From Anthoceros angustus (Eukaryota > Plantae > Anthocerotophyta): DNA of 64,000 nucleotides. The notes beneath the pieces were generated by a model. It was not told the DNA's origin and ran no database searches. It saw only the letters and a list, made by a program, of their open reading frames with translations. Shown piece by piece: positions 7,701 through 61,541 of the stretch. The stretch is taken from the NCBI GenBank assembly GCA_010909165.1, contig MU008215.1, positions 1-64,000 of the forward strand, read 5' to 3'. A program made the translations under genes and the position numbers. How positions within the stretch are numbered: position 1 is the stretch's first letter; each line of letters opens with the position of its first letter.

Positions 7701-7909
7701 ACGCCCTAGGGGTGGTCGAGCTTGCTCCGCACCGGGGAGAGGGGTGAGGTGAATCTGGCAAAGGAGGAGGAAACCAAGGGATTGGCGCGCGGTCCGGAGC
7801 TTGCTCGAACGCCTGCCGGACGCCTGGGGTTCTTCTTTCCTTCACACTTGTCCGAGTTGTGTTCAAATTGAGAGAGAAGTGTTGAGTGGATGGTTGGAAG
7901 CCCAGGCTT

Positions 7910-7941
<32 letters not shown>

Positions 7942-9342: not shown

Positions 9343-9345
9343 TTT

Positions 9346-9362
9346 TGGCGCCGCTGCGGGAA
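9346..9362 (+). other. Primer binding site, tRNA-Asp type
   Basis: TGGCGCCGCTGCGGGAA lies 3 nt after the LTR end. The consensus with the copy at 28919 is TGGCGCCGCTGCCGGGAA, matching at 16/18 the complement of the plant tRNA-Asp(GUC) 3' end (TGGCGCCGTTGCCGGGGA) used by Athila elements. Confidence 0.85.
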
Positions 9363-9756
9363 TGGAATCGGGCGTGAGGTAGAACTAACCATAGCTAAGT
9401 AGAGTCTAGCATTACTAGATTGATGGATGCCTCGGGTGGAGACAAGCGATTCGATCCGACTGGGGAAACGCTCGCAAGACGGCAACGCCAAGCATGGAAA
9501 GATTGCAGAGAGTTACGAGGAGAGCACGGGCGGAGATCACACTGCGGACGAGGAAGAGGCAGAGTCGACTAGTTGGATCGGATCTTATCGGATTCCCCCA
9601 ACTCTCGACTACGCGGTACAAGGGCCGTACCGATTCCACCTTGTCTTTTGATCTCGCCCAGTGCCTAGATCCGCGGTCCAAATAACTGTGAATGTAGAGG
9701 TCACCGCATTTAGTGGCGGCCAACTACCGCAGCTGCTGAAAGTACTACCCGTAGTT

Positions 9757-12700: not shown

Positions 12701-12850
12701 AAGGATGAGTCGGCGCTCACCGATGTCGGGAAGGTTATGGATATGATCCGACAAGAATCGAACAGACCGATGTATTTTGGCCATCGACCACGACCCACCT
12801 CGCCACTGTTTCAACGACCGCAACATCTCAAACAGCTACCGCGTTGCGAA
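9757..12850 (+). CDS. A1 gag (retrotransposon capsid plus CCHC zinc knuckles), frameshifted, with a triplicated 584-bp block
   Basis: YGEKKGHEDPDEFVERF..AKWY..FGALKRAFCERF..YVLSKLE capsid motifs. The zinc knuckle is legible in A2 as CSTCGQQGHSRSNC, and a second CYNC..HL..CP follows. Confidence 0.8.
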
Positions 12851-15800
12851 ATGACGGTGGGGTTGGCGAGAAAGCAGCACAGTGTGTTCCTTTCAATTTG
12901 GCGACGCTATCATGGACCAAAAGTTCATGATAACGCTCGACTTCTCGTGGACAATCCGCGACCGCCAAAGAACTGGGGGCATTGAAGGCGGCACAACCCA
13001 AGAAGAGACGGAACCTTTCCACCCCAAGGCCGAAAACCTTCTGTGAATATGGTGGCCATGATGGACTGTGTCCTGAGCTCTGATAGAAATTGCGGATGTG
13101 TAATCAAGAAGGTGCCGCTAGATTCCGGGTCGAGTCAACATCATGACAGGAGACCGCTAAGCTTGGGTTGCGATAGAACATACATCAAAGGTGTTGCTGG
13201 CGGACATGTCCAAAATGGCGTAGGGGAGTGACGGAGTCCTAACCCATATTGGTACCATTCCGCACTCATGGACTACGTGGTCATTAAACAAAAAGCGCTG
13301 TGGTATGAGGTTCTCATTGACGAACATGGATGTATGGGGCACGTTGCACCTTCAAATGGGCGAAAGGAAGTGGGATTCAAACCTCCGGAGGGACCCCAAA
13401 ATTAAGGAGGAAGGATATGTTTGACTTGGAGCAGATACGACGCAGGGGGAGACACCCACAAACGGAGGGATACACCTCAAGATACCTCTGGGAGAGGATG
13501 AGAAGGAGAAATTCCCATTCGCATATTTCGTGGTCGATGAAGAGGACGACACGGAGAGATATTCCCATTCCATCAACCTATTAGGGTGCTATGGAGTCAC
13601 AATTGACAACCCGGTGGTCGGACCGAGACCAGACGAGGTCGAGGAACAAGAAGTAGAGGTCGAGCCGGGAGCGACGATCCGGACAAACTTCGGAGGGTGC
13701 GAGGAGGGTGTCTCACGCTTTACCTCACGACCTATTCCGGAATGGGGAATGCGCAAGGAGAACCAAGACTGGAGGAAGGGTTCGCATCACATCCGCGCCG
13801 GAGAGAGAGTGGCAGACGGATGAGGTCAAGGATGTGGAAGTGTTGCCCGCAAGGTCCTTAAGTTTTCGAAGGATGAATGCAGACTTGGAAAGGGGTATGA
13901 AACAAATTACATGGAATTTATCCACGTTTTGCTTTTGACGTTCTGACATGAAGGGTATACCGAGGGAGTGGGGAGCACAAGATTGATCTCGAGCCGGTGC
14001 GTCCCGGATACCGCAATACAAGCTAAATCCAAAGTATTCATGAAGGTAAAGGAACAATTGGAGCTCTACTTGCGCTGACGTCATATATCCTATTGTGACA
14101 TCGGAGTGGGTAGCCCCAATTGTGGTGGTTCCCAAAAGCGTAAGGGAAGATATGGGTCCGTCAGATTGGAGGAAGTTAAACAAGGTGACCAAAAAGACCA
14201 TTACCCGCTTCCATTCATAGACAACATAATCGGACTTAGTTGCGGTGGAGAATGGTCTACCTGCTCGGATGGGTATTCGGGTATAACACATCTCGTGGAG
14301 AGTGATTGGCCCAATGCCTTCTTCACTGATCGGGAACCTATGCCTACAAACGGAGTGCTCGGATTAACAGGGCACCGTGATCCTTCATGCGATTGTCAAG
14401 ATTTTCAAGGAATACCTTAGGGACTTCATGGAGGTCTTCTGGATGACTGCGTGTTTGGAGCGAAGATCACCTCAACCACCTTCGCAAATGTCCGAACGGT
14501 GTCATGCACAATTGTGTCTACATCCCGAGAAGTGTTATTTCGGCATGCCAGAGGGTATTTTGTTGGGGCACCGCATTTCTGCGCGGGGGATAGAGGTCGA
14601 CCCGGATAAGGTCAAAATCATTACCGCCCTCAAGCCACCTACCACACTGAAGGAGCTTAGGGGATTCCTCGGAATGGTAGGCTATTATCGAAGGTTTGTG
14701 AAGAATTTCTCCAGAAGGGCAGCTCCGCTTACAGAATTGCTTCGCAAGGACCAGGAGTGGGAATGGACGCAAAAACGAGAGGAGGCCTTCAATGATCTTC
14801 GCACCACCGATCACAAAGACCCACACGATCGAACAAGAAGTTCCACGTGTTTGTAGACGTTTCGGCCTATGCAATCGGTACCATTCTAAGCCAAAGGGAT
14901 GACAAGAAGCACGATTATCCAATCTATTATGCAGGGAGGCAGCTCACTGACGCAGAAAGGAAGTATACCACCACCGAGAGGGAGGCGCTAGGGATGGTGT
15001 ACTCGGTTCGCAAGTTTCGTCACTATTTGCTATCCTACGAGTTCGTCTTCCATGTGGACCACTTCGCCCTCAAACACCTGGTAAACAAAACTGACTTGTC
15101 TGGACGCATAGCAAGATGGATCCTACTCCGCAAGAATTCACGCTCACGGTGGAGACCAGAGGAGGAGTAAACATGTGAATGCATTACATTTCGATGAAAC
15201 AGAGGAGGTTACACAGACCAAAACGACGATTTTCCCGATGAAGCTGTCATGATGAGTTAGAGGGGAAGCGCACGGCCAACCATAAGGCGAGGGTAAATGG
15301 TGGCTCGGGGAAATGAGAAGGGAGAACGGATACACAAGGCCCACTCACGAGGAGATGATGGAATTCTGGAACGGGAAAATACCATCGGATCTTTCAAACC
15401 CCAGGCTTGTGCACTATTCGCGTCCGCTTGTACGACGCAAAGACAATCTGCAAATCGGGACCGGATGGGCGGACAGTTATGGGTAACAAGGAGCAGTTAT
15501 CCGAAAGCCGACGAGATGCACGAGGGGAAGCGGAGGACATTTTGCGCACATATCACGTGCAAGAAGGTGCTTGAAACGGGTATTGGCAAACCATGCATCG
15601 TGATGCTAGGAGTTTGTTAAACGCCGCGATGCTGCCGAGGGTTGGGAAACCGTCCGCAACCACTCAATGGCCAATGGTTCCGATATTGGCGGCGCCATTC
15701 GAGAAATGGGGAATAGACTTTGTTGGTCCCATACAAAAAAACGAGGACGCGACAAAACCAATACATCCTCGTGGCCACGACTATTGCACGCGTATGGTGG

Positions 15801-16493
15801 AAGCCCAAGCCGCAGTAGACACTCATGTAGTGGCCAGTTCCTCTATGAATGATTATCACCGATATGGTCTGTCCCTTGGAGCTTGTCACGATGAGGGTCA
15901 CATTTCAACGGTTATATCTCATATGACGATCTACTTCAACGTCGCAGAAAACGACTCCTTATAATCCCAAGGCAAATGGCTTAACGGAAAAGGCGAATGG
16001 GCTCTTGTGCAGGATCCTCAACAAGCTAACGGTGGAATACGACGATCGGGATCTTAAGCTTCACTCCGCCCGGGCATACAGGATCGCAGAGAAAATAACA
16101 ACGCAACAAACACCGTACTACCTCACCTACGGCCATTCTCCTAATGCCTATTGAGTTTGAAATTCCCACCGCGATCCAGAAACTAACCGCATGGCGAGAG
16201 GAAAGTCACCGAACGCCTGGTCACCGCTAAACATACAGAGGATAGAGCGGCGTGAGTCATGCGTGATATTAAAGGAAAATATGGCATGACAATCGGTTGG
16301 AAGCAAGAGTGGTAGATTGGTGACTTGGCCTCATTGCATTACAATAGGTACATGCACTTTCCGCAAGCTCCACCTTCGATGGATGGGGCCAAAGTTCTCA
16401 AGTCTTCAAAGAATGGCTCAAGACAACCGCAAGAGTTAGCGGACCTCCACTACCACCGAGTCAATGGGTGGAGGGTCAAGAAGTATTATATAA
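12851..16493 (+). CDS. A1 pol (protease, RT, RNase H, integrase), frameshifted
   Basis: VPLDSGSS protease; IYPIVTSEWVAPIVVVPKK and LGHRIS..GIEVDPDKV (RT); FVDVSAYAIGTILSQ..YTTTEREALGMVY (RH); PFEKWGIDFVGP and RVNGWRVKKYY (INT). Confidence 0.92.
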
Positions 16494-19135
16494 GTTGGCG
16501 GGACGCCAACAAATGAGAAGGGAGTAAACGATCTAGTCTCGAAACCCTGCTAAAATGTGCCCAAGTGAATTTTTTGTTTTTTCCGAGGTGTGAAAATATT
16601 GAGTAGTTGGGGATATTCATAGTAAAAATGTCCTTGGCCTATGGAGTTCTTTTTGTTTTATTGCCTAGGTTAGAAAATAAATGGTCCGGAATTTGGTGTT
16701 CCTTGGCCCATGGACTCGGAATGTTCCCTAAAAAGTCTATATATGTGAGATAGGGGGTTTGGAATAATTAGAGTCTATAAGTTGGGGTCGACCACGCGCG
16801 GTAGTGAATGAGTGGGGTTGTGGATTGGGATGTGGGAAAGCGGTAGAGGTCAACAGAGTAGGGGAACCCGGGAAACTTAACCCTAGGAATGATGTAATCC
16901 TGCTCAAACAACGGAGCGCAACGGCGGACGGGAGCGAGCGAGCGACGACGGCGCGCGACGGTCGAGGAGCCGTCCGGGGCACCGTGATCGCAGGAGGGCG
17001 CGAGGCGCAACGACGGGAAGGAGCTCCAACCCCGCCGACATCGCGAGGCGCGCAGAGGAGGAAGGCGCGATGCGCAGATATTCGAAAACGGAAAATATGG
17101 CATGACAATCGGTTGGAAGCAAGAGTGGGTAGTGGTGACTTGGCCCCTGCTACAATAGGTACATGCACTTTCCGCAAGCTCCACCTTCGATGGATGGGGC
17201 CATATAAGTCTCTCTTGAGAATCAGACAACCGCAAGAGTTAGCAGACCTCCACTACCACCGAGTCAATGGGTGGAGGGTCAAGAAGTATTATACATAAGT
17301 TGGCGGGACGCCAACAAATGAGAAGGGAGTATGTAAACGATCTAGTCTCGAAACCCCGTTAAAATGTGCCCAAGTGAATTTTTTGTTTTTGGGAGTGGTG
17401 TGAAAATAAGTCAGTTGTAGTTGGGGATATTCATAGTAAAAATGTCCTTGGCCTATGGAGTTCTTTTTGTTTTATTGCCTAGGTTAGAAAATAAATGGTC
17501 CGGAATTTGGTGTTCCTTGGCCCATGGACTCGGAATGTTCCCTAAAAAGTCTATATATGTGAGATAGGGGGTTTGGAATAATTAGTCTATAAGTTGGGGT
17601 CGGCCGCCGGTATGAATGAGTGGGGTTGTGGATTGGGATGTGGGAAAGCGGTAGAGGTCAACAGAGTAGGGGAACCCGGGAAACTTAACCCTAGGAATGA
17701 TGAATCCTGCTCAAACAACGGGCCAGGGCCAGGGAGCGGCGGAGCCGACGGAGCGCGGCAAGTCGAGGAGCCGTGTCCGGGGCACCGTGATCGCAGGAGG
17801 GCGCGAGGCGCAACGAAGGGAAGGAGCTCAACCCCGCCGACATCGCGAGGCGCGAGACCAGAGGAGGAAGGCGCGACAGACAGTGGCTCCTTGAGAGGAG
17901 GTAGGAACCGAGACCGACCTCCGTGAAATTCGCAGCGAGGTGGCGTTGGTTTGTGGCGCGAGACCGGAGTGAGAGGGATGGCGCCCAAGGTCACCAAATT
18001 GTGCTTGCCCAATGGCCGAACATGGATCATTGGAAAGTTCGGTGGGAGTGTGAAGGAGGCTAAGGGTTTCATGGAAGCAAGAGTGGGTAGTTCGTGACTT
18101 GGCCTCATTGCAAACAATAGGTACATGCACTTTGGCAAGCTCCACCTTCGATGGATGGGGCCATATAGGGTTCTCAAGTCTTCAAGAATGGCTCAAGACA
18201 ACCGCAAGAGTTAGCAGGACCTCCACTACCACCGAGTCAATGGGTGGAGGGTCAAGAAGTATTATACATAAGTTGGCGGGACGCCAACAAATGAGAAGGG
18301 AGTATGTAAACGATCTAGTCTCGAAACCCTGTAAAATGTGCCCAAGTGAATTTTTTGTTTTTTGAGAGTGGTGTGAAAATAAGTCGATTGAGTAGTTGGG
18401 GATATTCATAGTAAAAATGTCCTTGGCCTATGGAGTTCTTTTTGTTTTATTGCCTAGGTTAGAAAATAAATGGTCCGGAATTTGGTGTTCCTTGGCCCAT
18501 GGACTCGGAATGTTCCCTAAAAAGTCTATATATGTGAGATAGGGGGTTTGGAATAATTAGAGTCTATAAGTTGGGGTCGACCACGCGCGGTAGTGAATGA
18601 GTGGGGTTGTGGATTGGGATGTGGGAAAGCGGTAGAGGTCAACAGAGTAGGGGAACCCGGGAAACTTAACCCTAGGAATGATGTAATCCTGCTCAAACAA
18701 CGGAGCGCAACGGCGGACGGGAGCGAGCGAGCGACGACGGCGCGCGACGGTCGAGGAGCCGTCCGGGGCACCGTGATCGCAGGAGGCGCGAGGCGCAACG
18801 ACGGGAAGGAGCTCAACCCCGCCGACATCGCGAGGCGCGCAGAGGAGGAAGGCGCGATGCGCAGATATTCGAAAACGGAAAATATGGCATGACAATCATG
18901 GAAGCAAGAGTGGGTAGTTCGTGACTTGGCCTCATTGCAAACAATAGGTACATGCACTTTGGCAAGCTCCACCTTCGATGGATGGGGCCATATAGGGTTC
19001 TCGAAGTCTTCAGCAATGGCTCAGTACAACTGCAAGAGTTAGCAGGACCTCCACTACCGACCCGGGTCAATGGGTGGAGGGTCAAGAAGTATTATACATA
19101 AGTTGGCGGGGACGCCAACAAATGAGAAGGGAGTA
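16260..19135 (+). repeat. Tandem repeats of the integrase end/PPT/LTR start unit
   Basis: GAGAAGGGAG followed by the LTR start at ~16525, 17332, 18305 and 19136. Copies 1 and 3 share the same junction GAAGGCGCGATGCGCAGATATTCG. Confidence 0.9.
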
Positions 19136-19320
19136 TGTAAACGATCTAGTCTCGAAACCCTGTAAAATGTGCCCAAGTGAATTTTTTGTTTTTTGAGAGT
19201 GGTGTGAAAATAAGTCGATTGACTAGTTGGGGATATTCATAGTAAAAATGTCCTTGGCCTATGGAGTTCTTTTTGTTTTATTGCCTAGGTTAGAAAATAA
19301 ATGGTCCGGAATTTGGTGTT

Positions 19321-19502
19321 CCTTGGCCCATGGACTCGGAATGTTCCCTAAAAAGTCTATATATGTGAGATAGGGGGTTTGGAATAATTAGAGTCTATAA
19401 GTTGGGGTCGGCCGCCGGTATGAATGAGTGGGGTTGTGGATTGGGATGTGGGAAAGCGGTAGAGGTCAACAGAGTAGGGGAACCCGGGAAACTTAACCCT
19501 AG
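19321..19502 (+). promoter_or_regulatory. Candidate upstream promoter for the LTR gene: CCTTGGCCC, TCTATATATG (TATA), AACCCTAG (telo-box-like)
   Basis: Motifs at 19321, 19356 and 19495. The same three motifs occur in the same order in the A2 and B LTRs. Confidence 0.6.
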
Positions 19503-19504
19503 GA

Positions 19505-21900
19505 ATGACAATCCCGCTCAAACAACGGAGCGCAACGGCCGGACGGGAGCGAGCGAGCGACGACGGCCGGGCGCGACGGTCGAGGAGCCGGTCCGGGGCA
19601 CCGTGATCGCAGGGCGAGGCGCAACGACGGCGGAAGGAGCTCGCCCCCGCCGACATCGCGAGGCGCGACGCAGGAGGAGGAAGGCGCGGCGCAGGCGCTG
19701 CCGAGGAGGTAGGAACCGAGACCGACCTCCGTGAAATTCGCAGCGAGGTGGCGTTGGTTTGTGGCGCGAGACCAGAAGACTGTGAGAGGGATGGCGCCCA
19801 AGGTCACCACCGAAATTGTGCTTGCCCAATGGCCGAACATGGATCATTGGAAAGTTCGAGTGGGAGCTGTGAAGGAGTCAAGCCGGGTTTCATGGAAGAG
19901 CGGTGGAATTACATGAACTGGACGTGCAGAGCCACCGGCGACATGACCAAAGGGGATTTAGAGCAAGCCGCAGGATTGGGACCGGGTTAGAGGGTGTATG
20001 GCGAAGCAAGGAGGAGGCGGGCGGGTTGGTGATGGAGCCGTCAGAAAAGAAGCACGGCAAGAAGCAGCCGCCCGTTAAAGCGGGCGATCGCGAACCCAAC
20101 GGGTTGGTTGATTTGGACGGCAATTTGATGGGTCCGCCAGTGGCTCCTATGTTTCGCAGACAAGAAGTGGATTATTTGTCCGACCACTTGCCGCTCCTTC
20201 ATGAAGTGGTCAAGGGGCGAAGATCGATTAGCGAATTCTCTTGACAAGTTGTGTGAAGAGAGGTTGAACTTGATTTCCGCCTCGGCCCTCTCTAATCTCA
20301 CCATTTCGGTCCATCTTTATGTTTACGCTAACTGCCCGCTGAGGTGGAGATTGTAGCCTCCTCCACATGTGGAAGCCGGTTAGGGAGGTGAAATGGAAGG
20401 CGGAGGAGCCCAAGGAGGAAAAATCGGATAGCCGGGAGTGGGCGACAGGCCTGGAGGAGGAGAAGGAAATTCCCACCAAAGAAAAGGAGGAAGACCGGGG
20501 TGAAAGGCGGGCATCAAAAAAAGGTGAGCGGATGCGCGGCCACTGTGTCGAAAACGCGCCGCTACAGAAAATGAAAGCCAAACGCAGCTTGGAGGTGGCG
20601 AAGAGGAGGCGCGATCCGAGGACAATTTTGCGACTGGATGCGATGATGAATCAACTCCGAGGGTTTAGGGCGACCTCGAGGCGGACCCTCCTCAAAGATG
20701 GGAAGAGATTTTCAAGGGACTCCACCGCAACAGAGGTGGATGCAACCGAATTGGTGAGGGTGCGCACCGGGGAGGAAAGTTCTCGATGGAGGGATGGCGT
20801 CGCGGGGCCGCCACAACAAGTGGACGGCAGAGCTGACCACGCCGATGATCCGGGCCCAAGCATTTGTTGGATCAAGCGGCTTTAGCTCTCACCGGCTCGG
20901 TGCAGGGGGCGACGGAGGAAGTGGTGAAGGCCAGTTTGACGAAGAGGAGGCCAAGCGCAAGCAACGGAGGAAGACAAGCGGAACCTAGAGGAAATAAGGG
21001 CCAAGATTCAAGAAGATTTGTGCAGGCCTGTGAGAAGTTGCAAGCCATGACGAGCCAGGAAGCACTCATGGCTCAAATTAAGGATGCCCACGAGACGAAC
21101 CAGAGATGCGGGGGAGTTGTTGCGAGCCCAGAGCGTGGAAGCGGCCTCGTGGAAAAGGCCCATAAGCTAGCGGAGCGATATAAGCGGAGCGGATGAGGCA
21201 CGCGGCCGCCGAAAAGACAAAGGGAAGGAAGCGGGTGACCACGACCGAGTAGCGGAAGGGCCTACCGAGCGGAAGGAAGCAAAGAACCGAGGTAGCAACC
21301 TCACCTACCGGTTGAACGAACGATCCGTGGAGTCCACTACCGCGGTAGTCGAAACCGCTACCGACATTGGCGCAACCAACCCGGTGCAGGCGGGCGGCGG
21401 TGTGCGACGTGGCGCCTCGCGAGGACATAGGCCGTGCAAGTGTAGCCTACGGAGGAGGGGCACCTCACCGCAGCAGGGGTCCTATTATATTACGGCACAT
21501 GGATGAGGAAACTTATGTGCTCGGTCTATATGTGAATGGAGAACGCGCGGCTTAACCTCACCGTCCCATGTGCGTGTGGAAATAGGAGGGATCGGCCTAC
21601 CCATCGCAAGTGAGGACCCGGCATACTTCTACCACCGCGCCGGGGTTGGCTCCTATTATGCGGAGGCGACTTTGGAGGAGTTGAGCGAGGAGGAGGTCCA
21701 GCTTGGGTGGACGAGGAGCCGAATAATCCTCGAATAGGCGGCCGGAAGATGCGAAGCCCAGGCGTGGTACACCTCAAATTCGACGCCCAGCGATGTGAGG
21801 TGGAAGTAGTGTGGGAGAACCCGTCACGGCAAGGTGAGAGCTCGTGGCGGCAGAATGGAGGACGTGAGGCCGACGGCCAAGTCGAGGTAGGGCGCGAGAT
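19505..21900 (+). CDS. LTR(U3)-embedded gene of A1, 3' LTR copy (consensus about 750-800 aa, frameshifted here)
   Basis: ATG at 19505 directly after AACCCTAGGA. Successive ORF pieces 19748-19990, 19903-20244, 20367-20885, 20864-21196, 21367-21555 and 21707-21928 carry motifs shared with family B. Length estimated by eye. Confidence 0.7.
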
Positions 21901-23311
21901 AGCGAGGGGTGAGGTGGTAGCAACCTAAAGATAATTTGGTTAGGATGTCGACCGACCTAGGATCGCTCCGAATTGTGGGCGTCCTTCGCGATAGCCATCT
22001 TAGGACCTAAAATCCGGCGGTGCCCCGATGTATAAGAGGGGCGAATTAGGTCCCTCACGCCGATAACTCTGGTTGAGATCCCCACGCCGTGGGCTGGTTG
22101 GAGACGTCCGATGAGAGGCGGTGCGCGAGACGCCCTAGGGGTGGTCGAGAGCTTGCTCCGCACTGGGGAGGAGGGGTGATAAAGCAATCTTGCCGACAAA
22201 GGAGGAGGAAACCAAGGGATTGGCGGGCGGTCCGGAGCTTGCTCGTAACGCGCCGTGACGCCCGGGGTTCTTCTTTCCTTCACACTTGTCCGCTAGTTGT
22301 GTTCGAGAGAGAAGTGTTGAGTGGATGGTTGGAAGCGCGCGAGTTGAGGGAGAGAGAGAGAGGGAGAAGATTGGGTGAAGGAGTGACTAAACAATCAGAT
22401 GGCGAGGTGTGAGAGGGGTTGAGAAGGGAACTAATTGAGAGGCTAGCGGAGATTGTGTGAATCCAAAAGAAACCAAACCGGCAGCTGGTGGAAGCGCGCA
22501 AGGGGAACAGCGCCTTGTAAAATTGTGTGAGTGTGGCGCCTTTGTGTGTGTGTGGAGTGAGGGATTTGTGGAATTTAGGTCCCTAGGAATCGGTGTGTGT
22601 GTGCATGTGTGGAGTGTGAATAAAGCCGGATCCGCATGCCGTGGACGCCTGGCGATCCGGAAATAAGTCGCTAGGGTTTGGTGTGGGACCCACCGGTGGT
22701 CAAGCAACTACCCGTGAGAGCCGCCATGGCCGTGGAATGAGACGGCTCGTGGAATAAGAGCGTGGTAGTGGACAAGTCGGGGGGGTAGTAGTGGTTGAGT
22801 AGATAGGTAAGAGGAGTAATAGCAAGTAAGTCTTGACTTAGGTGAAGGTGAGCGATAGAAGTTAGCGCCTCTTGGCACAAACCATTCCCTTGGGAGCGAA
22901 TCCTAAGCCTACAACGACATTGAGGGTAAATGTGGACTCACTTGTCCCCGGACACGAATCCACACTCCACACCACATCGACCACGCACACCTCGCCTCAC
23001 TTGCCTAAAGAAGACATTTTAAGAATCAAGAACAAAATGTTAGGCAATTTCGCATGATGATTCATCCGATCAACACATGAGGGGCATTCGCCTCGCCTGA
23101 TACTATGTAAACTTTATGTGCTCACGAATCACAAGCATGCACAAAAAAGAGTTGTAGATTAAAGAACAAAGTTCACTATACATATAAAGAAGGCACAAGC
23201 CAAACGCAGAAAGACCTAACTACCCAAAGTAGACCCTGGGAGTATAGGCAATGTACTAACAACTAACATTTATTTATTTTTTCAGCAATTTCTACTCGAA
23301 TGAGCTCGCAC

Positions 23312-26300
23312 TGTAAACGATCTAGTCTCGAAACCCCTCAAAATGTGCGAATTTTTTGTTTTTCCGAGAGGTGTGAAAATAAGTCGATTGACGAGTTGGG
23401 GATATTCATAGTAAAAATGTCCTTGGCCTATGGAGTTCTTTTTGTTTTATTGCCTAGGTTAGATAATAAATGGTCCGGAACTTGTTCCTTGGCCCATGGA
23501 CCTCGATATCCACTACAAGGTCTATATATGCGGGGGGGTTATTTTTTGTCACCTGGGTTAGTCGACCCAGTAGCGAATGAGTATGGGGTTGTGGATTGAT
23601 GAGCGGTCGAGAAGACAACCAGTGGTAGTGGAGGCCAAACTTAACCCTAAGGAAACCGTGTAGGGTGACCGAGCTGCTCAAACGGAGCGCAATGGGGCCG
23701 GAGCGGAGTGGAGCGAACGCGGCCGGAGCGTGAGGTCCGAGGAGTCCAGAGGCGGACCGTGATCGGAGAGCGAGAGGGCGCGATCGGAGGAGCTCAACCC
23801 TCACCGCTGAAGTCGCAACCCCGCTGTGGAAGGAAGGCATGCGCGGCCTGAGGAGGAGGTAGGAACCTCGAGACCGACCTCCCTGAAATTCGCGCGAGGT
23901 GGCGGAGGAAGAGGCGCGAGACCGGGGACTATCCGGAAGGATGGCGCCCGGTCCACCACCGAGATTGCGCTTGCCCAATGGCCAAACATGGATCATTGGA
24001 AAGTCCGAGCGAAGGCCGGGTTTCATGGAAGCGGTGGAATTACATGAACCGGGTGCAGTGCGCCGCCACCTAAAAGACAAGCAACCGGCGAGGGAATTAG
24101 AGCAAAACCTCGGGATTGGGACTGGCATTGGTTAGGGAAGTGTATGGGCGCAAGGAGGAGGAGGCGGGGTTTGGTGATGGAACCTTCTCGGAAAAGGAGC
24201 ACAGCCGCCACAGTGGCGGCGATCCGAACCCAATGGTTGGTGGCGAGGTGGCAACGATTAATGGGTCCGCCAGATGGCTTCTCGCTTCCTACAGCAAGAA
24301 GCGGGATTATTTGTCCGACCACTTGCTTGTTCCTCCATGAAGTTGTCAAGGGAAAATCGATTGAGACGAATCCTCTTTGAGAAGTTGAGTGAAGAAAGGT
24401 TGAATGATTTCTCCTACCCGGCCCTCTCTAATTTCACCATTCCTAGTTCATCTTATGCGCATGCTAATTGCCCGAGGTAGAAATTGTGGCCTCCTTCATA
24501 TGTGGAAGCCGGTAGGGAGGTGAAGTGGAATTACATGACCGGGATCGGTGCAGAGTGCGCCGCCACCTAAAAGACAAGCAACAAGGGGAATTAGAGCAAA
24601 ACCTCAGGATTGGGACCGCATTGGTTAGGGAAGTGTATGGGCAAGAAGGAGGAGGCGGGGTTTGGTGATGGAACCTTCTAAAAAGCACAAGCAGCGGTTA
24701 AGGGCGAATCCGAACCCAATGGTTGGGAGCGAGAATTGGCAACAGATTAATGGGTCCGCCAGATGGCTCTATTCCTCTGACAAGAAGCGGGATTATTTGT
24801 CCGACCACTTGCATTGTTCCTCCATGAAGTTGTCAAGGCGAAAATCGATTGGGCGATCTCTTTGAGAAGTTGAGTGAAGAAAGGTTGAATCGATTTCTCC
24901 TACCCGGCCCTCTCTAATTTCACCATTCCTAGTTCATCTTATGCGCATGCTAATTGCCCGGGAGGTGTGGCCTCCTTCATATGTGGAAGCCGGTTGGAGG
25001 TGAAGTGGAATTACATGACCGGGATCGGTGCAGAGTGCGCCGCCACCTAAAAGACAAGCAACAAGGGGAATTAGAGCAAAACCTCAGGATTGGGACCGCA
25101 TTGGTTAGGGAAGTGTATGGGCGCAAGGAGGAGGAGGCGGGGTTTGGTGATGGAACCTTCTAAAAGAGCATGAAGAAGGAAACCGTGAAGGCGGGCGAAT
25201 CCGAACCCAATGGTTGACGAGAATTGGCAACAAAGAGCTTAATGGGTCCGCCAGATGGCTTCTCCTCGCACAGACAAGAAGTGGATTATTTGTCCGACCA
25301 CCGCCGTTGTTCCTCCATGAAGTTGTCAAGGCGAAAATCGATCGGGACGAATCTCTTTGAGAAGTTGAGTGAAGAAAGGTTGAACTGATTTCTCCTACCC
25401 CCGCCTCTAATTTCACCATTCCTAGTTCATCTTTATGCGCATGCTAATTGCCCGCGAGGTAGAAATTGTGGCCTCCTTCATATGTGGAAGCCCGTGTGGA
25501 GGTGAAGTGGAAAGCGGAGGAGCCTAAGGAGGAAATTGAGGAGGAATCGACACTGGGAGTCCATGGCGGCAGGCTGAGGAAGAGAAGGAAATTCTACCAA
25601 AGAAGAAGAGGAAGACCGTGGCACGGTCCCATAAAAAAGTGAAGGTGGACGCCACGTCACTGTCGAAGTGCCGCCACAGAAAAGCAAAGAAAATGAAAGC
25701 CAAACGCAGCTGAGGTGGCGGAGGAAGAGGCGCGATCCGAGGAAGAAAATTTTGCCGACTGGATGCGATGATGAGCCACCAGAGGAATTAGGTGACCTCG
25801 AGCGGACCCTCCTCAAAGATGGGAAGAGATTTTCAAGGGACTCCACCGGGCAACAGAGGTGGATGCAATTGGTGAGGGTGCGCACTTTGTTGGGAAGGAA
25901 AGTTCGGCGAGGGATGGCGTGCACGGGCCGCCGCAAGTGTGGAATTACGTGAGCCGACGACATCGGCGATCCGGGCCCAAGCGGATTTGTTGGACCAAGC
26001 GCCTTGGCTCTCACATGGCTCGGTGCAAGGGCGGAGGAAGTGGTGAAGGCCAGTTTGACGAAGAGGAGGCCAAGCAAGCAATCGGAGGAAGACAAGCGGC
26101 CTTAGAGGAGATAAGAATCAAGATGTGGAGGATTTGTGCAGGCCTGTGAGAAGCCGCAGCCATGACGAGTCAGGAAGCGCTCATGGCTCAAATTAAGGAT
26201 GCCCACGAGTCAAACCAGAGATGGAGAGTTGTTGCAGCCCAGAGCGAGGCGGCCTCGGTGGAGAAGGTCCATAAGCTGGCGGTATAAACGGAGGGATGAG

Positions 26301-28144
26301 GCACGTGGCGGGCGGAAAAGAGAAGGGAAGCGAGGTGGCGGGACCGACGGGGTAGTGGAAGGCACTACCGGAGGAAGGACAGCCAAGGTATGAAACACCT
26401 ACCACGGACCAACGACGGTCGTGGAGAAGGTCCATAAGTCGGCGGAACGATAAACGGAGCGGATGAGGCACGTGGCCCGTAAAAGAGAAGGGAAGCGAGG
26501 TGGCGGTGACCGACGGGGTAGTGGAAGGCACTACCGAGGAAGGACACAAGCAGCCAAATAAACACCTACCACCGGACCAACGACGGTCGGAGACTACCAC
26601 CGGGTAGCGGAAGCGAATGGACGGCGGCTGACGACGCGCTCGAGGACATGGTGCAACTGTGTAGTCTACGGAGGAGGGTAAGCACCGCAGCAGGTCCTAT
26701 TATATTACGCACATGGATGAGGAAACTTATGGTCTATATGTGAATGGAGAACGCGGCTTAACTCACCGCCCATGTGCGTGTGGAAATAGGAGGGATCAGT
26801 CCTACCCATCGCAAGTGAGGACCAAGTGCATACTTCTACCATTGCGCTGAGTGGGATTGGCCCCTATTATGCGGAGGCGACTTTGGAGGAGTTGAGTGAA
26901 GAGGAGGTCCAGCTTGGGTGGATGAGGAACCGTGGTAATCCTCGGCAATAGGCGGCCAGCCAAGAGGCGGAAGTCTGTGGTATGCCCTCAATTAGGACGC
27001 CCAAGCGTGAGGTGGAAGTGGAAAACCCGCCGATCCGGGCGTGGCAGGGCTCGTGGCGGCGATGGAGGACGGGGGCAAAGTGACGAAGTCGGGAGGGCGC
27101 GGATAGCGAGGCGAGGTGGTAGCATCCTAAAGATAATTTGGTTAGGATGCCCACCGGACCTAGATCGCGAATTGTGGGTGCGCTTTAGCTTTTTAGGATC
27201 TAGAAACCGGGGAAAGCAGCCACCGATGTATAAGAGGGGCAACTTTGCCCACCACAGATAACTCCCGGTTGAGATCCCCACGCCTGTGGATGGTTGGAGA
27301 CGTCCGATTGATGAGGTGGTGGCGCGACGCCCTAGGGGTGGTCGAGAGCTTGCGCAACGGAGGAGGAGGAGGTGATGGAGCAATCTTGCGACAAGGAGGA
27401 GGAAACCAAGGGATCGCGGGCGGTCCGGAGCTTGCTCGAACGCGACGCCTGTTTTCTTCCTCCTTCACCTTGTCCCGAAAGTTGTGTTCAAATCGAATTG
27501 TGGAGTGCATGGTTGAATGAGGGAGGGGAGAGAGAGAGAAGAGATCGAAGGAGAGATCAAATCAGACGCGATGCGAGGTGAGATCAAAGTGGGAAGAGGA
27601 GTGAGCGAATTGGAGCGCTAGCAAGGAGAATTGTGTGAATTGAGAAACTCAAACCGGGGCGTGGAAAGTGCACAAGGAAAACAACGTCTCTAGTAGAAAC
27701 CGTGGGGTGGCGCCTTGTGTGTGTGTGTGTGTGTGTGAGGAGAGGGAGGTATCCTAGGAACTTTGGTCTCTAGGAATTGGTGGGTGCATGAAGTGTGGAG
27801 TGCCAAATAAAGTCCGATCCGCGAGCCCGTAGCTGCGTTAGGGATCCGCGCGCGCCCGAGATGAGTCGCTAGGGTTTGGTGGGACCCACCTCGGTAGTCG
27901 TAGCAACTACCCGTGTGGAATGAGATTTGCGGTCGTGGAATGAGATTTGCGGTCGTGGACAAGTCGGTAGTAGTAGTTGAGTAGATAGGTAAGAGGAGTA
28001 ATAGCAGTAAGTCTTGACTTAGGCAAGGTCATGTGATAGAAGTTAGCGTCTTGGCACAAACCATTCCCTTGGGAGCGAATCCTAAGCCTACGACATTGAG
28101 GGTGAATGTGGACCTCACGGTGTCCTGGACACTTACACTCCACA
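23312..28144 (+). repeat. A2 5' LTR containing the LTR gene (a ~480-bp block is triplicated at ~24034-25505)
   Basis: Same termini as the A1 LTRs. Contains DYLSDH..FLHEVVK and SNFT(P)FLVHLYAHANC motifs. Confidence 0.85.
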
Positions 28145-28918
28145 TTTTGGCCGCGGGAATGGAATCACAAGGACGAGGAAGGACTAACCTAGCTTACGTA
28201 GAGTCTAGCATTACTAGATTGATGGATGCCTCGGTGGAGACAAGCGATTCGATCCGACGGGGAAACGCTCGCAAGACGGCAACGCCAAGCAGGAAAGATT
28301 GCGAGAGTTACGAGGAGAGCACGGAGATCACACTTGCGGACGAGGAAGGGGACGAGTCAACTCGGAACTAGGGATCGGATCTTAGCATTGATTCCCAACT
28401 CGACTACGAGCGGTACAAGGGCGGTACCCGATCCCACCTTGTCTTTTGATCTCGCTCCAGTTGCCTAGATCCGCGTCGTCACTTCGTGAATGAGAGGTCG
28501 ATCAGACGTAGCGGCCGTCAACTACCACATGATGAAAGTACTACCACGGCGTTATGGCGATACTCGGTGCTTGTTACTACTAAGCAATCTTACCCGTTGT
28601 ATGGAGAAAAGAAGGGCCATGAGGATCCCGACGAGTTTGTCGAGCGTTTTGAGCGGTGACGCCAACCGTGAGGATGCGATCGTGCCCACTGCTTTATGGA
28701 GTCTTACGGGCGGCCAAGTGGTACAAGCGGGGGTAGTAGTAGTTGAGTAGATAGGTAAGAGGAGTGATAGCAGTAAGTCCCGACTTAGGCAAGGTCGAGT
28801 GATAGAAGTTAGCCTCTTGGCACAAACCATTCCCTTGGGAGCGAATCCTAAGCCTACAACGACATTGAGGGTGAATGTGGACCTCATGTCCCTAGACACA
28901 AGGTTACACTCCACATTT

Positions 28919-28933
28919 TGGCGCTGCCGGGAA
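28919..28933 (+). other. PBS (tRNA-Asp type) of A2, with a second degenerate copy at 28148
   Basis: CCACA-TTT-TGGCGCTGCCGGGAA. Confidence 0.8.
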
Positions 28934-29326
28934 TGGAATCACAAGGACGAGGAAGGACTAACCTAGCTTACGAGAGTCTAGCATTACTAGATTGATGGAT
29001 GCCTCGTGGAGACAAGCGATTCGATCCGACTGGGGAAACGCTCGCAAGACGCAACGCCAAGCCGGAAAGATTGCGAGAGTTACGAGGAGAGCACGGAGAT
29101 CACACTTGCGGACGAGGAAGGGGGAGGAGTCAACTCGGAACTAGGGATCGGATCTTAACGGATTCAGATTCCCAACTCGACTACGTAAGCGGTACAAGGC
29201 CGTACCGATCCCACCTTGTCTTTTGATCTCCATATTGCCTAGATCCACCGCACCTCACTGAATGTGAGGCCACCGCGAGGGCCGCTGGCCACCACCGCAA
29301 TCGTGGAAAGTACTACCACGGTAGTT

Positions 29327-32300
29327 ATGGCGCGATCTCGCTTGTTACTACTAAGCAATCCTACCCGCTGGAGAAAAGAAGGGCCATGAGGATCCCGACG
29401 AGTTTGTCGAGCGTTTTGAGCACCGACACTTGCCCAGAGGAGGATGCGCATCGTGCCCAGCTGTTTTATGGGGTCTTACGCGGGGCGGCGGCCAAGTGGT
29501 ACAAGCGGGAGTACATAGCTTCTTCCACACCCCCAGCTACCTTTGGGGCCTTGAAGAGAGCTTTTTGTGAAAGATTCAGAGGGGTCGATGTGGAAGGGTA
29601 TGTCCTGTCCAAGTTGGAGGGATTGCAGAGAGGGAAGAAGGAGACCCTGCAGCTTATGTGGAAAGGTTCCACAGCCTACGGGATCGGGCTGGTCCGCACT
29701 CGGAGCTAATGGCCATTCGCTGGTTTGCAAGAGGATTGGGCGGAGATGGGAAGACACGCGTCTAAGCCGAGAAAGATTTGGATCGGGCGATCAAGGCCGC
29801 TCGAACTATGAGGAGTCCAACGCGAAGAGAAGAAGAACTCAACAAGGGCGCACAAGGACAAAAAGAAATACAAAAGAAGAAGAAGTACTATTCGCCCTCC
29901 GATGACAGCCTGGGAGGATAGTTTTCACCGACTCGGGTAGCTCCACCAAGAGGAGACCAGCGAGGATTCGGAGGAGAATTCGTCAGACGGTGAGCGCAAC
30001 CGAAGGGATAGAAGGAAGAAGGGAAAAAATGACTGGGAAACAAGACGACGTGCAAAAGGGAAGGAGCTGCTATATGCACGAAAGGACGCGGAGCAGGTGA
30101 GAAGAGAGGTGGAAACAGCAGCCAAAAAGGTGGAGCAACAAGGAACAAGATGGAGGAAATGATGGTCAAACTGGAGAAACTCCATCTTAATGCCATCAAG
30201 GACCACGATAGGAGAAGGGTTGCTACTGGAGCGCTGGCGAATCTCTTCTGCTCAACTTGTGGACAGCAGGGGCACTCGAGGTCGAACTGTCCACAAACAA
30301 AAGTACAACTGCTGGGCTACGAGGAGGACGAGGAAGAAATGTGCTTGGAAGATACGTACCAAATCCAAGACGCGACGCCAGTTTCTGGGTACTCAAAGAC
30401 CCTATACCCCTCAAGTTTACGAAACCCCGCTGGTATGGGTATTCGTACTCAGATGGTAAGAAACCCGTGATGATGAGTGCCATCGGTTACAATTGTCGAG
30501 GGTTCGCATCTTGCTGGTTGCCCCTCCGCATCTCGCCAGGAATGGTGATTTTGAAAGGTGTGTGGATTGCAAGCAATCACGTGAGGGCAGCGCCCGCTGC
30601 AGACACCAAAGAAACATGTGAGGATTGCTCAACCTCCGGCGACCCACCCCGCACAAAAGAAAGCCCGCTGCCGAATGCAAGTCAAGATGCGCCATGGTAT
30701 GGGAGGATTCCGAGGCCAGCATACTGAGGAGCCTGGAAGGGTTGGGGGATGTGGACGGTGGGTATTACGGAACTCCTGCGATGGCTGTTCGAACGCGGAG
30801 CGGCGAGAGGAAGGCGGACACCCTAAGAAGAGGGGAACGGGGGAAAAAGAGAAAGAAGAACGGAGTGGGAGCCTCCATAACGTCCGCAAGTGAGGAGGAA
30901 GAGGCGTCTTCGTCAGGCGGGGAAGGAAGGGGGGTCCAACCACAAAAGGCGACGAGGGACTTGTATGGGGAATCAGAAAAAAGGGCATGCGAATCCAAAA
31001 TGGACGGGAGCAAGGCACGAACGCCACACCTAACGCGAGGATTGCGATTTCGATGGCATCAGTGTAACTCCCTTAGCGCCGAGACCGCTGGATTCGAGGG
31101 TGAAGCAAAACGAGGACAAATGGACGGCAGCGGGACTCGAGTCGACACATGGGGCGAAAACCCGCAAGAGGAAAAAGGATGAGTCCACGTTTCCGCCCGA
31201 TGTCGAGGAAGTTATGGATATGATCCGACAAGAACTGGAGCAGACTCAAGCAGTCGTACCTTTTTGACCACGACCCACCTCCGCCATCTGTTTCAACGAC
31301 CGCAACATAACCTACATGTTCAAATGGTGGGGTTGGCAAGGAGAAAGCAGAAAAGTCGGTGTTCCTTTCAATTTGGCGGAAGCTATCATGGACCAAAAGT
31401 TCATGATAACATTGACGACTCTCGGGACAATCAGCGATACCGCAAATCCGTGGGGCATTGAAGGCGGCACAACCCAAGAAGAGAGAACCTTTCCACCCCA
31501 AGGCCGAAAACCCTTCTGTGAATATGGTGGCCATGATGGACCCGAGTCTGAGCTGAGATAGAAATTGCGGATGTGTAATCAAGAAGGTGCCGCTAGATTA
31601 TTCGAGTCAACATCATGACAGAGGAGACCGCTCGGAAGCTTGGGTTGCAGATAGAACATACATCAAAGGTGTTGTGGCGGACATGTCCAAAATGGCGCCG
31701 TAGGGAGTGACGGAGTCCTAACCCATATTGGTACCATTCCGCACCTCATGGACTACGTGGTCATTAAACAAAAGCGCCAGGTATGAGGTTCTCATTGACG
31801 AACATGGATGTATGGGGCACGTTGCACCTTCAAATGGGCGAGAAAGGAAGTGGGATTCAAACCTCGGGTGGGACCCCAAAATTAAGGAGGAAGGATATGT
31901 TTGACTTGGAGCGGAGATACGTCGGGGAGACACCCACGAAACGGAGGGATACACCTCTGCTGAAGATACCTCTGGGGGAGAGGATGAGAAGGAGAAATTC
32001 CCATTCGCACATATTTCGTGGTCAGATGAAGAGGACGACTACGGAGAGATATTCCCCATTCCATCAACCTATTAGGTTGCTATGGAGTCACAGTTGACAA
32101 CCCGGTGGTCGGGAGGAGGATCGACTGAGAAGGCTGGACGGAGGTCGAGGAACAGGAAGTAGAGGTGGTCGAGCCGGGAGCGACGATCCGGACAAACTTC
32201 GAGGGTGCGAGGAGGGTGTCTCACGTTTACCTCGACGACCTATTCCGGAATGGGGAATGCGCAAGGAGAACCAAGACAGGAGGAAGGGTTCGGCATCACA

Positions 32301-38300: not shown

Positions 38301-39288
38301 AGGGAGGACATTTTGCGCACATATCACGTGCAAGAAGGTGTTGAAACGGGTATGGTGGCAAACCATGCATCGTGATGCTAAGGAGTTTGTTAAACGCTGC
38401 GATGCCGCCGAGGGTTGGGAAACCGTCGCAACCACTCAATGGCCAATGGTTCCGATATTGGCCCCGCGCCATTCGAGAAATGGGGAATAGATTTGTTGGT
38501 CCCATACCAAAACGAGGACGCGACAAAACCAATACATCCTCGTGGGCTGCACTATTGCACGCCAGATGGTGGAAGCCCAAGCACTGCAGTAGACCATGTA
38601 GTGGCTGTTCCTCTATGAACACATTATCACTCGATGGTTGCCCTTGAGCTTGTCACGACAGAGGGTCACATTTCGTCAACGGTTATATCTCATATGACGA
38701 TCTACTTCAACGCGCCACAGAAAACGACTTTATAATCCCAAGGCAAATGGCTTAACGGAAAAGGCGAATGGGCTCTTGCGTGATCCTCAACAAACTAACG
38801 GTGGAATATGACGATTGGGATCTCAAGCTTCACTCCGCCCGGGCATACAGGATCGCAGAGAAATAACGACGCAACAAACACCGTACTACCTCACCTACGG
38901 CCATTCTCCTAATGCCTATTGAGTTTGAAATTCCCACCGCGATCAGTGAAACTAACCGCATGGCGAGAGGAAAGTCACCGAACGCCTGTCGCCTTCGCTA
39001 AACATACAGAGGATAGGAACGGCGTTGAGCGCTGCGTGATATTCAGCGAAACGGAAAATATGGCATGACAATCGGTTGCGGAAGCAAGAGTGGGTAGTTC
39101 CCGGTGACTTGGCCCTGCTGTACGACAATAGGTATATGCACTTTCCAGGGAAGCTCCATCTTCGGTGGATGGGGCCATACAAAGTCCTGGACGTCTTCAG
39201 CAATGGCTCAGTACAACTGCAAGAGTTAGCAGGACCTCCACTACCGACCCGAGTCAATGGGTGGAGGGTCAAGAAGTATTATACATAA
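29327..39288 (+). CDS. A2 gag-pol, frameshifted, with protease and RT regions each present in about three copies
   Basis: CSTCGQQGHSRSNC knuckle; KIRVCQDWRKLNKVTKKDHYPLPFIDNILDLVAGRMVYSFLDGY (35141-35563); RH (37508-38257); GKLHLRWMGPYKV..RVNGWRVKKYYT stop at 39288. Confidence 0.92.
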
Positions 39289-39323
39289 GTTGGCGAGGAC
39301 GCCAACAAATGAGAAGGGGAGTA

Positions 39324-61507: not shown

Positions 61508-61541
61508 TACTCCCTTCTCATTTGTTGGCGTCCTCGCCAAC

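Follow-up and report, generated by a model that had tools for sequence, protein, structure and literature searches.

The 64,000-nucleotide window analysed here (contig MU008215.1 of Anthoceros angustus, positions 1 to 64,000) contains retrotransposons with giant long terminal repeats (LTRs), raising the question of whether a whole accessory gene can reside within an LTR and what such a gene would do for its element. The limits of the repeats could be read from their junctions. The sequence TGTAAACGA stands at the LTR start both after two different unrelated flanks (4727 and 23312) and after the polypurine tract (PPT; 19136 and 39324), each family A repeat, which opens with TGTAAACG, being preceded by one or the other, and CTCCACA closes the LTR and is followed by the primer-binding site (PBS; 9342 and 28144) or by two different flanks (22971 and 43851). 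These junctions, together with the 3707-bp span of the family B LTR, bear out the preliminary description of the locus. Its LTR size of 3.7-4 kb holds at 3.7-3.8 kb for families A and B; the longer copies, of 4.5-4.8 kb, were lengthened by tandem duplications arising from the assembly.

Two family A elements, A1 and A2, lie on the plus strand and are separated by a 340-bp spacer. The 3' LTR of A1 (19136..22971, 3836 bp) has the PPT upstream and CTCCACA followed by an unrelated flank, and it matches the 5' LTR at 4727..9342, which has its own copy of the gene (5394-7498) and is lengthened by an 800-bp tandem duplication. The intervening region (9343..19135) carries gag-pol, as indicated by a Pfam RT_RNaseH match and by polyprotein tblastn, and measures ~6 kb once ~3.8 kb of tandem duplications is taken out; the whole element amounts to ~13.6 kb, with LTRs of 3.8 kb. 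Its PBS (9346..9362), which we take to be of the tRNA-Asp type, recurs one base longer in the related metagenome loci L002, L005, L008 and L009. Element A2 comprises a 5' LTR (23312..28144) with a gene copy from 23941 and a triplicated N-domain segment, an internal region (28145..39323) with PBS, gag (Retrotrans_gag, zinc knuckle), pol and PPT, and a 3' LTR (39324..43851) with a gene copy from 39968 to ~42060. Family B is represented on the minus strand by a 3' LTR (57801..61507; gene copy 60858 to ~58780), its 5' partner not being seen in the window, and by the adjoining pol with reverse transcriptase (RT), RNase H, integrase and PPT (61508..64000; RVT_1 E 2e-11), which extends past the window edge. 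A 5'-truncated family B LTR on the plus strand (831..3036), 86.5% identical to 60117-57805, retains the 3' half of the gene. The order LTR-PBS-gag-RT-RH-INT-PPT-LTR with TG...CA ends is that of Ty3/gypsy elements.

As had been proposed, the gene lies inside the LTR, between PPT and PBS, with a copy in each LTR. A conserved pre-PPT block and the PPT (19102..19135, plus strand) stand immediately 3' of the A1 integrase stop, and the same block is found at 39289 in A2, at 61541 (minus strand) in B and in 8 of 15 related loci; the family B LTR follows the same PPT as family A. Since only 30-40 bp separate the integrase end from the LTR start, there is no space for an internal extra ORF. One could argue that the true LTR is short, that the gene is an ordinary 3' extra ORF of the internal region, and that mis-assembly or recombination produced the long repeats, so that the giant LTR would be an artefact. 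The many tandem duplications would agree with this, as would the internal arrangement that exists in L005 and the lack of a 4-5 bp target-site duplication in A1 and A2, where the flanks differ in both two-LTR elements, an absence that assembly chimerism or recombination could explain. However, the repeat starts after two different unrelated flanks and also after a PPT, in A1, A2 and B a PPT block of the functional type occurs solely upstream of the gene, the layout is common to three elements from two families, and independent contigs show the same order, all of which renders an artefact very improbable. Contigs from one sequencing run (2383 contigs; possibly the source sample) covered 28 of 30 bins, leaving the 340-bp spacer between A1 and A2 without coverage and yielding no contig across a junction, a gap that carries no weight as evidence, and a second run left the LTR uncovered.

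The LTRs of A and B barely align as DNA, in keeping with the preliminary description, their similarity being restricted to patches (58-63% within the gene and 74-85% in the last 70-130 bp). Nevertheless, two TATA-like boxes flank the gene in both families. The first (19355..19365, plus strand), a candidate promoter of the LTR gene, is the same 11-mer at LTR position ~220 in four A LTRs and in B, and the second (22027..22037, plus strand), a candidate promoter of the genomic RNA, is shared as the same 11-mer at LTR position ~2890 by A1 and B; with the second box as genomic promoter, the gene would fall wholly in U3. A candidate polyadenylation signal, AATAAA (22619..22624, plus strand), occurs in all four A LTRs and not at this place in B. 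The notion of a self-contained cassette thus holds at the level of sequence.

In A1, the gene runs on the plus strand from a conserved ATG (19791) to a likely stop (21928), spanning ~2.1 kb or ~710 codons, broken here by indels; its length across four copies is 692-713 codons, to which the earlier figures of ~2.3 kb and 750-800 residues must be corrected. The start ATG GCG CCC is conserved in A and B, and the layout comprises a folded N-terminal domain, a charged linker, a likely coiled region and a conserved C-terminal block. The motif order is indeed common to A1, A2 and B, and the LHEVVK codons are as first quoted, but the differences are not exclusively synonymous: seven hand-picked A1-B blocks contain 21 synonymous, 11 replacement and 20 identical codons. 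Where A and B share a conserved residue, roughly half of the codons carry a silent difference. In a tblastx comparison of A and B, short motif matches appeared amid noise, and a reading of EVEIV downstream of the N-domain probably lies out of frame in family A.

The gene had been called complete; its longest sense stretch without a stop is 249 codons, and indels break every copy in the window. Between sister LTRs there are ~5 gap events in every 100 nt, with 2.5-4.3% substitutions; tandem assembly duplicates show the same level (5.8-6.3 gaps per 100 nt, 2.8-3.5% substitutions), which suggests that the breaks stem from sequencing error and that the elements are young. Where read contigs depart from the window, they likewise do so by small indels, of one base in most cases. 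As each copy is broken at the assembly's own error rate, the gene is likely intact in life, although unproven. Selection between A1 and A2, for which a dN/dS comparison had been envisaged, was not detected by three unbiased tests (synonymous fraction 0.56 against a null of 0.54, p 0.30; best-frame permutation p 0.17-0.38). Frame was kept in four of eight tie-free intervals (31 intervals in total), which does not demonstrate continuity. Substitution spacing was flat for the LTR gene, a fraction of 0.34-0.41 of the pair distances being multiples of 3, and reached 0.49 for pol between A1 and B; pol between A1 and A2 was also flat (0.35), and the test therefore has no power. The non-significant A1/A2 tests, the lack of an open copy and a degenerate homologue with stops at 55600-54780 would suit a gene that was captured in U3 and is now a decaying passenger, its breaks being partly real. 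We find this improbable, given the match between break rate and assembly error, the mostly one-base indels of the read contigs, the fact that A and B, at ~40% DNA divergence, have each kept the start codon, the two TATA boxes and the length of the gene, and the open frames of relatives.

Those relatives, found in metagenomes, bear long open homologous frames. The N-terminal domain of this family (see below) lies downstream of integrase in 8 of 15 integrase-related loci, and in six relatives the pre-PPT block and PPT-TG directly follow integrase, a PPT-then-gene layout; the LTR limits of these loci were placed with the help of the pre-PPT block rather than of insertion junctions. L002 shows a PPT, a 1082-codon frame and a PBS within 4.5 kb and has no second block, and in L005 the gene is internal, the pre-PPT block occurs after the gene alone, and the LTR is 1 kb long. 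Near their ends, L002 and L004 carry a PPT-like tract without the pre-PPT block; it was not scored as the LTR start, though it may be one. The six PPT-then-gene layouts and the one internal layout suggest that the gene was captured in U3 through a switch of the plus-strand priming site. RT matches are Athila-like, with best identities to liverwort and environmental proteins. In a short integrase tree, which excluded the protein P0017, the window elements are unresolved, lie outside the starred angiosperm Athila clade and do not join the LTR-type relatives; an integrase scan of viral contigs found nothing.

What, then, might the protein be? Direct searches with window fragments (a word search and scans of viral and metagenome contigs) returned no homologue, nor did a full HMM search in which the profile of the window protein comprised 11 fragments and 67 positions, and Atlas scores of window fragments all fell below 0.9. 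A profile built from relatives alone, in contrast, had as its top seven of 158 windows N-domain copies of the LTR gene or the 55-kb relic, with five of six LTR copies scoring 22.6-27.3, above the background maximum of 19.8; one A1 copy (A1L) scored under background, and in a separate test the other (A1R) was no better than the best of its shuffles. HHalign of the N-domain against the relatives gave a probability of 69% and E 4.4e-5 over 23 columns, and a reciprocal profile among 143 proteins (23 of the family) ranked family members as the top 4 and as 10 of the top 14. The N-terminal domain at 19830..20340 (plus strand) is therefore likely homologous to the Transposase_32/ATHILA-like, VANC21-like domain of the relatives, a tie that rests on short motifs.

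AF2 models of two relatives (pLDDT 91 and 89) were compared with 48,161 solved chains, among which VANC21 bound to DNA was the sole chain with Z of at least 5 in both searches (Z 7.1 and 7.3, rmsd 4.1-4.2, 199-200 of 213-221 residues aligned). Identity is 10-12%, the runner-up reached Z 2.1 or was missing, and the Z values, obtained for relatives only, are middling. Foldseek on PDB and BFVD gave no match at E 0.001, VANC21 having no significant score, and a PDB sequence search gave none. In the Atlas, the relative P0122 neighbours PF20167 (features 0.91, TM 0.74) and PF03078 (features 0.90, TM 0.67), below the tool's family-naming bar; the relatives' N-domain resembles a Transposase_32/ATHILA ORF. 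The early guess of a Transposase_32-type or anti-silencing factor thus gains support from folds and Atlas neighbours of relatives and none from Pfam, where window fragments, six family ORFs and three family proteins produced no match above the gathering cut-off, PF20167 and PF03078 included, and PF04195 was likewise unmatched; DUF1985 was not matched by window fragments or scanned relatives. The other early option, an env-like membrane protein for cell-to-cell movement, accords with Athila ORFs having been named env-like (PMC7264820), but no 19-residue stretch exceeds a hydropathy of 1.45 in any of 21 relatives or four window copies, none of which has a transmembrane segment, and the modelled fold of the relatives is soluble and helical without a viral structural match; we deem it exceedingly improbable.

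Non-coding parts of the LTRs are rich in CCTAGG, a motif selected after the fact (observed against expected: 5 vs 0.4 in A1, 3 vs 0.4 in B and 2 vs 0.3 in A2), and relatives show palindrome biases specific to the family. In the available text of PMC5735166, short motifs in VANC targets show a similar enrichment. The CCGG bias of relatives extends into coding regions and could reflect methylation context, and AGCGCT is over-represented in L005, whose CpG is scarce elsewhere (observed/expected 0.12 in pol), a pattern that fits local protection from methylation.

We put at about even the chance that these are non-chromovirus Ty3/gypsy elements in which a likely intact accessory gene, in the likely U3 of a 3.7-3.8 kb LTR, likely encodes a protein of the ATHILA-ORF/Transposase_32 group that binds DNA in the nucleus; with a VANC21-like fold, as predicted from relatives, it would bind short motifs of its own element and keep it unsilenced. 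The predicted VANC21-like fold of its likely relatives suggests that the gene may be the element's way round host silencing, its product likely being a sequence-specific anti-silencing factor, although a shared fold does not by itself show function, which is read here from relatives. An Athila-like ancestor would have been arranged as L005 is, with a purine tract additional to the true PPT following integrase and the gene sitting between the two; a shift of plus-strand priming to the upstream tract would then have made the gene part of U3, to be copied to both ends at each round of reverse transcription. Expression from the first TATA box would be separate from the genomic transcript starting after the second, and because of this independence each LTR, solo ones too, would serve as an expression unit. 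The N-domain would bind a short motif typical of the family, oligomerisation would fall to the charged and coiled region, and silencing marks would be held off the LTR promoter.

The same U3 gene and DNA-binding fold could instead trans-activate the LTR promoter or oppose Polycomb rather than remove DNA methylation. Retroviral Tax and Tas are trans-activators of the LTR promoter. Acidic low-complexity regions are present, and according to the available text of two reports MAIN/MAIL1 PMD proteins, which oppose Polycomb, have the VANC-like fold too (10.1101/2024.09.27.615353, PMC13547354); that of a third proposes DNA binding and a regulatory role for Retand TRP28 (PMC11963269). We nonetheless think this unlikely, since the single solved match is an anti-methylation factor and the AGCGCT pattern of L005 fits methylation protection. 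Alternatively, the protein might act late, binding element cDNA or host chromatin and importing or tethering the integration complex, roles that have been suggested for extra ORFs (PMC7264820). An integrase without a chromodomain and the basic C-termini of most relatives would be compatible with this, yet a particle factor needs neither a separate U3 promoter nor two copies per element, and no similarity to known targeting domains was found, so we rate a late role as quite unlikely.

More broadly, and only tentatively, this may be a widespread non-seed-plant gypsy group in which a PPT switch moved a VANC-like anti-silencing gene to U3, the LTR or solo LTR being an autonomous cassette with its own binding sites and the Athila 'env-like' ORF family a retrotransposon branch of a VANC/PMD DNA-binding superfamily rather than an envelope. 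A whole gene within U3 alters what an LTR is, as the gene is doubled per insertion, and when a solo LTR forms, an event that as a rule disarms the element, the gene would here stay behind. Reviews place the extra ORFs of plant retrotransposons in the internal region and assign them no known function (PMC7264820, PMC6317226), and the VANC21 fold match offers a direct test of the long-open role of those of Athila type. If true, sequence-specific anti-silencing would no longer be confined to a single group of DNA transposons but would also serve LTR retrotransposons in early land plants. LTR finders with short length limits would overlook such elements, and gene annotators would label their LTR genes as host genes.

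Among known systems, Athila shares the PBS sequence type, RT neighbours, the lack of a chromodomain (the window integrase stops just past the GPY/F region), a sense-strand extra gene 3' of pol and, through the relatives, the domain nearest PF20167 (Transposase_32) and PF03078 (ATHILA ORF-1). An additional RNase H, which would separate Tat from Athila, may be absent: the noisy sequence gives RT_RNaseH matches only and is collinear with relatives that lack it. The available text of PMC2829016 reports an extra PPT after pol in Athila4 and Calypso. The window elements differ in that the gene, without a Pfam match, lies downstream of the working PPT, within the LTR and doubled; L005, unlike the window elements, has a sense-strand extra ORF after pol and ahead of the 3' LTR, and the window integrase falls outside the starred angiosperm clade. 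VANC21, from the Mutator-like DNA transposon VANDAL21 (PDB 9LNK, 9LNJ), shares the predicted fold over ~200 residues, the combination of folded domain, coiled-coil and variable regions, and short motifs enriched in non-coding parts, but it belongs to a DNA transposon, is 10-12% identical and has a DUF1985 domain unmatched here, and its motifs are tandem 9-mers, whereas the candidate motifs here are dispersed 6-mers. Rice Retrosat2/RIRE3 also combines very long LTRs (over 3.2 kb) with an extra ORF0, which in the available text of PMC3485330 is single, upstream of the gag-pol ORF and not doubled in the LTRs. The OTA elements with Ogre PMD and Retand TRP28 have an accessory domain with a coiled-coil and, as far as the available text goes, proposed DNA binding, but theirs is internal, mostly antisense and accompanied by an extra RNase H, and PF10536 and PF04195 are not matched here. 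Phygy and Selgy (REXdb) are likewise non-seed-plant non-chromoviruses with a polyprotein filling the internal region; they measure 4.4-10 kb (Phygy 7.7-10 kb), list no extra ORF and mostly use a tRNA-Trp or tRNA-Ala PBS, whereas our element is ~13.6 kb and has an LTR gene. In the literature searched, we found no description of a whole gene in U3 of a plant LTR retrotransposon. The retroviral genes MMTV sag, HIV nef and spumavirus bel lie in or overlap U3 and are therefore duplicated. The likeness to them lies in the position of the accessory gene, the proteins being unrelated; here, a whole gene about twice as long, its candidate promoter included, occupies the LTR of a plant element.

Self-comparison of the window delimited two family A Ty3/gypsy elements at 4727-22971 (A1) and 23312-43851 (A2), together with a family B element on the reverse strand (B; 3' LTR 57801-61507) that extends beyond the window edge and an extra truncated B LTR at 831-3036. 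At 19136 and 39324 the LTR starts directly after the polypurine tract (PPT), and at 4727 and 23312 it follows flanks that are unrelated and differ from each other. Its end meets the primer-binding site (PBS), probably of the tRNA-Asp type, at 9342 and 28144, and borders two further flanks, again not alike, at 22971 and 43851. Integrase ends 30-40 bp short of the LTR in all three elements (A1, A2, B). On these grounds the PPT-to-PBS span is entirely LTR, bearing out the preliminary description, which had placed an accessory gene inside the LTR and at both element ends. The LTR lengths of 3836 bp (A1) and 3707 bp (B) agree with the proposed 3.7-4 kb; copies of 4.5-4.8 kb were found by self-comparison to hold tandem duplications. 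No target-site duplication was found at the flanks of either A element. At the DNA level, A and B are most alike in the terminal 80-130 bp of the LTR (74-86%; 22862-22939, 2932-3010, 57834-57912), probably a structured U5 element beside the PBS. Elsewhere, the window holds a mitochondrial carrier gene with short introns (46794-48480, reverse strand; Mito_carr matches in three frames) and a match to C/D-box snoRNA Z266 above the Rfam cut-off (50042-50140, forward strand).

Between sister LTRs there are 4.8-5.1 gap events per 100 nt and 2.5-4.3% substitutions; the corresponding figures for tandem duplicates within one LTR are 5.8-6.3 and 2.8-3.5%. Contigs of run X1 depart from the window by small indels in at least 12 places. 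We take the assembly to be error-rich and the elements to be young. The tandemly duplicated stretches within the elements, 0.2-1.9 kb in length (7381-8995, 11020-12799, 16271-19135, 24034-25512, 27966-29513, 31184-38339 and 41891-43502), differ at the error rate and are likely assembly artefacts.

The LTR gene opens with ATG GCG CCC in A1, A2 and B, and its peptide motifs return in the same order across copies, confirming the earlier claim of a gene common to two families. A complete gene of about 2.3 kb had been proposed; the start and motif order are conserved, but the likely stop is reached after 692-713 codons (four copies) and the longest stop-free sense stretch is 249 codons. Across seven blocks (52 codons), a biased choice picked for amino-acid conservation, A1 and A2 showed 10 synonymous, 3 replacement and 39 identical codons, and A1 and B 21, 11 and 20, so that the differences in these blocks are mostly, but not exclusively, synonymous. 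Silent saturation beneath conserved residues is expected of coding sequence, within the bias of that choice. Unbiased A1-A2 coding tests gave no significance, and attempts to demonstrate frame continuity across the gene were unsuccessful; in our judgment the frame is probably intact. A C-terminal block (21499-21745 and homologues), without a Pfam match or a counterpart visible by eye in the relatives described below, is the most conserved A1-A2 part of the gene (9 fixed differences in 264 columns) and possibly a second small domain.

The reverse transcriptase is most similar to environmental polyproteins (up to 60% identity) and a Riccia protein (56%), followed by lower-ranked liverwort, fern, pine and angiosperm matches. 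A non-seed plant is the probable host. In an integrase tree (37 rows, 161 columns) the window elements had no firm placement; they were nearest by path to Riccia and fell outside the starred angiosperm Athila clade.

Error-rich window gene fragments used directly as queries retrieved no homologue in sequence, profile, Atlas or viral/metagenome contig searches. An integrase scan yielded 15 metagenome loci. In eight of them integrase is followed by one and the same N-terminal domain, and the four that contain the gene in full have open frames of 632-1082 codons; in five domain-less loci the contig ends less than 1 kb from integrase, and two (L011, L012) carry other ORFs instead. At L011, which lies closer to the angiosperm Athila branch, the different 3' ORF (11939-12391) weakly matches Transposase_32 (E 0.19). 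Eighteen additional proteins of 502-708 aa belong with these relatives. A relatives-only profile that included six of the eight loci (L006 and L008 left out) and no window sequence was scanned, with frameshifts allowed, across 158 windows of 800 nt. The seven highest scores all fell on copies of the N-domain or on a relic at 55 kb, and five of six LTR gene copies exceeded the maximum of 135 background windows (mean 14.7, maximum 19.8), the left-LTR copy of A1 falling below. End-to-end scores were 13-25 versus shuffle means of -5 to 5 (six shuffles each), the right-LTR copy of A1 not exceeding its best shuffle. HHalign aligned window gene and family over 23 columns (probability 69%), and the reciprocal profile placed family members first. 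By sequence comparison, the LTR gene thus appears, with good confidence, homologous to this family. The relic (55600-54780, reverse strand) is a degenerate N-terminal domain copy with stops and has the highest score in the window, 37 against the background maximum of 19.8; no pol or LTR pair lies near it in the window, and we regard it as an older family or a solo-LTR remnant.

The conserved block preceding the junction-validated PPT of the window occurs 83-109 bp after integrase, upstream of the gene, in L002, L003, L004, L006, L008 and L009. In L002 the block is followed by gene and PBS and does not recur, which makes the LTR 4.5 kb long, whereas in L005 the block lies only downstream of the gene and the LTR is about 1.0 kb; both arrangements therefore exist. 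In L005, L001 and L010 integrase is followed by a purine tract that lacks TG, and Athila4 and Calypso are reported to have an extra PPT at the corresponding place (PMC2829016). A priming-site switch, in either direction and once or more often, would interconvert internal-gene and LTR-gene states. The L005 contig has a 123-bp terminal repeat (1-123, 10730-10852) and forms a circular unit with one internal region and one LTR, either a repeat collapsed in assembly or a circle with a single LTR.

The N-terminal domain has no Pfam match. Two relatives, 27% identical, were folded with pLDDT 91 and 89; since their alignments overlap, the models are not independent. Foldseek gave no significant match for them. 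VIA-align against 48,161 chains returned DNA-bound VANC21, the anti-silencing protein of VANDAL21 transposons (PDB 9LNK, 9LNJ), as the only chain at Z of at least 5 (Z 7.1, rmsd 4.1, 200 aligned; second relative Z 7.3, rmsd 4.2, 199 aligned; 9LNJ Z 6.8). A Z below 8 may reflect a common arrangement, but the match spans the entire domain and the next row is at 2.1. Atlas features and structure point the relatives' domain to Transposase_32 and ATHILA clusters. The initial guess of a Transposase_32-type or anti-silencing factor gains support from the relatives. The env-like option was set aside, as 0 of 21 relatives and 0 of 4 window copies have a transmembrane segment. VANC21 is described as binding short motifs of its own element and causing hypomethylation (PMC5735166); VANC is similar to MAIN/PMD and, like the Athila domain, has been modelled as a coiled-coil pentamer (PMC13547354, bioRxiv 2024.09.27.615353). 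CCTAGG, a motif picked post hoc, is enriched in the non-coding LTR of A1 and B and weakly of A2, not in pol or flanks; the relatives show TCCGGA or AGCGCT bias. Whole loci L002, L004, L008 and L009 carry 17-26 CCGG per kb, an element-wide palindrome bias, and AGCGCT is enriched throughout L005 despite a CpG o/e of 0.12 in its pol.

The LTR gene is flanked by two TATA-like boxes, near LTR positions 220 and 2890, whose sequence and placement A and B share; from this we infer that it lies wholly in U3 with its own candidate promoter. The gene, presumably captured into U3 through a PPT switch, would be expressed from that promoter and encode a DNA-binding protein with a VANC-like fold. The best overall reading, which we hold to be about as likely as not, would be anti-silencing action. 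The literature searched, including text of PMC7264820, PMC6317226, PMC7466625, PMC11728184, PMC11963269, PMC3485330 and PMC10508981, yielded no plant element with a full gene in its LTR; LTR-borne genes might still be concealed among REXdb lineages that have ORFs both before and after pol. No link between Transposase_32/ATHILA and VANC was found in that literature; the VANC21 structure paper may already list such structural relatives.

The LTR-gene architecture is real and extends beyond the window, and the function hypothesis, which rests on the relatives, is specific and testable. Accessory genes in U3 are known from retroviruses (MMTV sag, HIV nef), and retroviral trans-activators provide a comparison class. 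Extra ORFs of plant elements have been placed in the internal region (PMC7264820); here, the accessory gene lies between PPT and PBS and is doubled, in two families.
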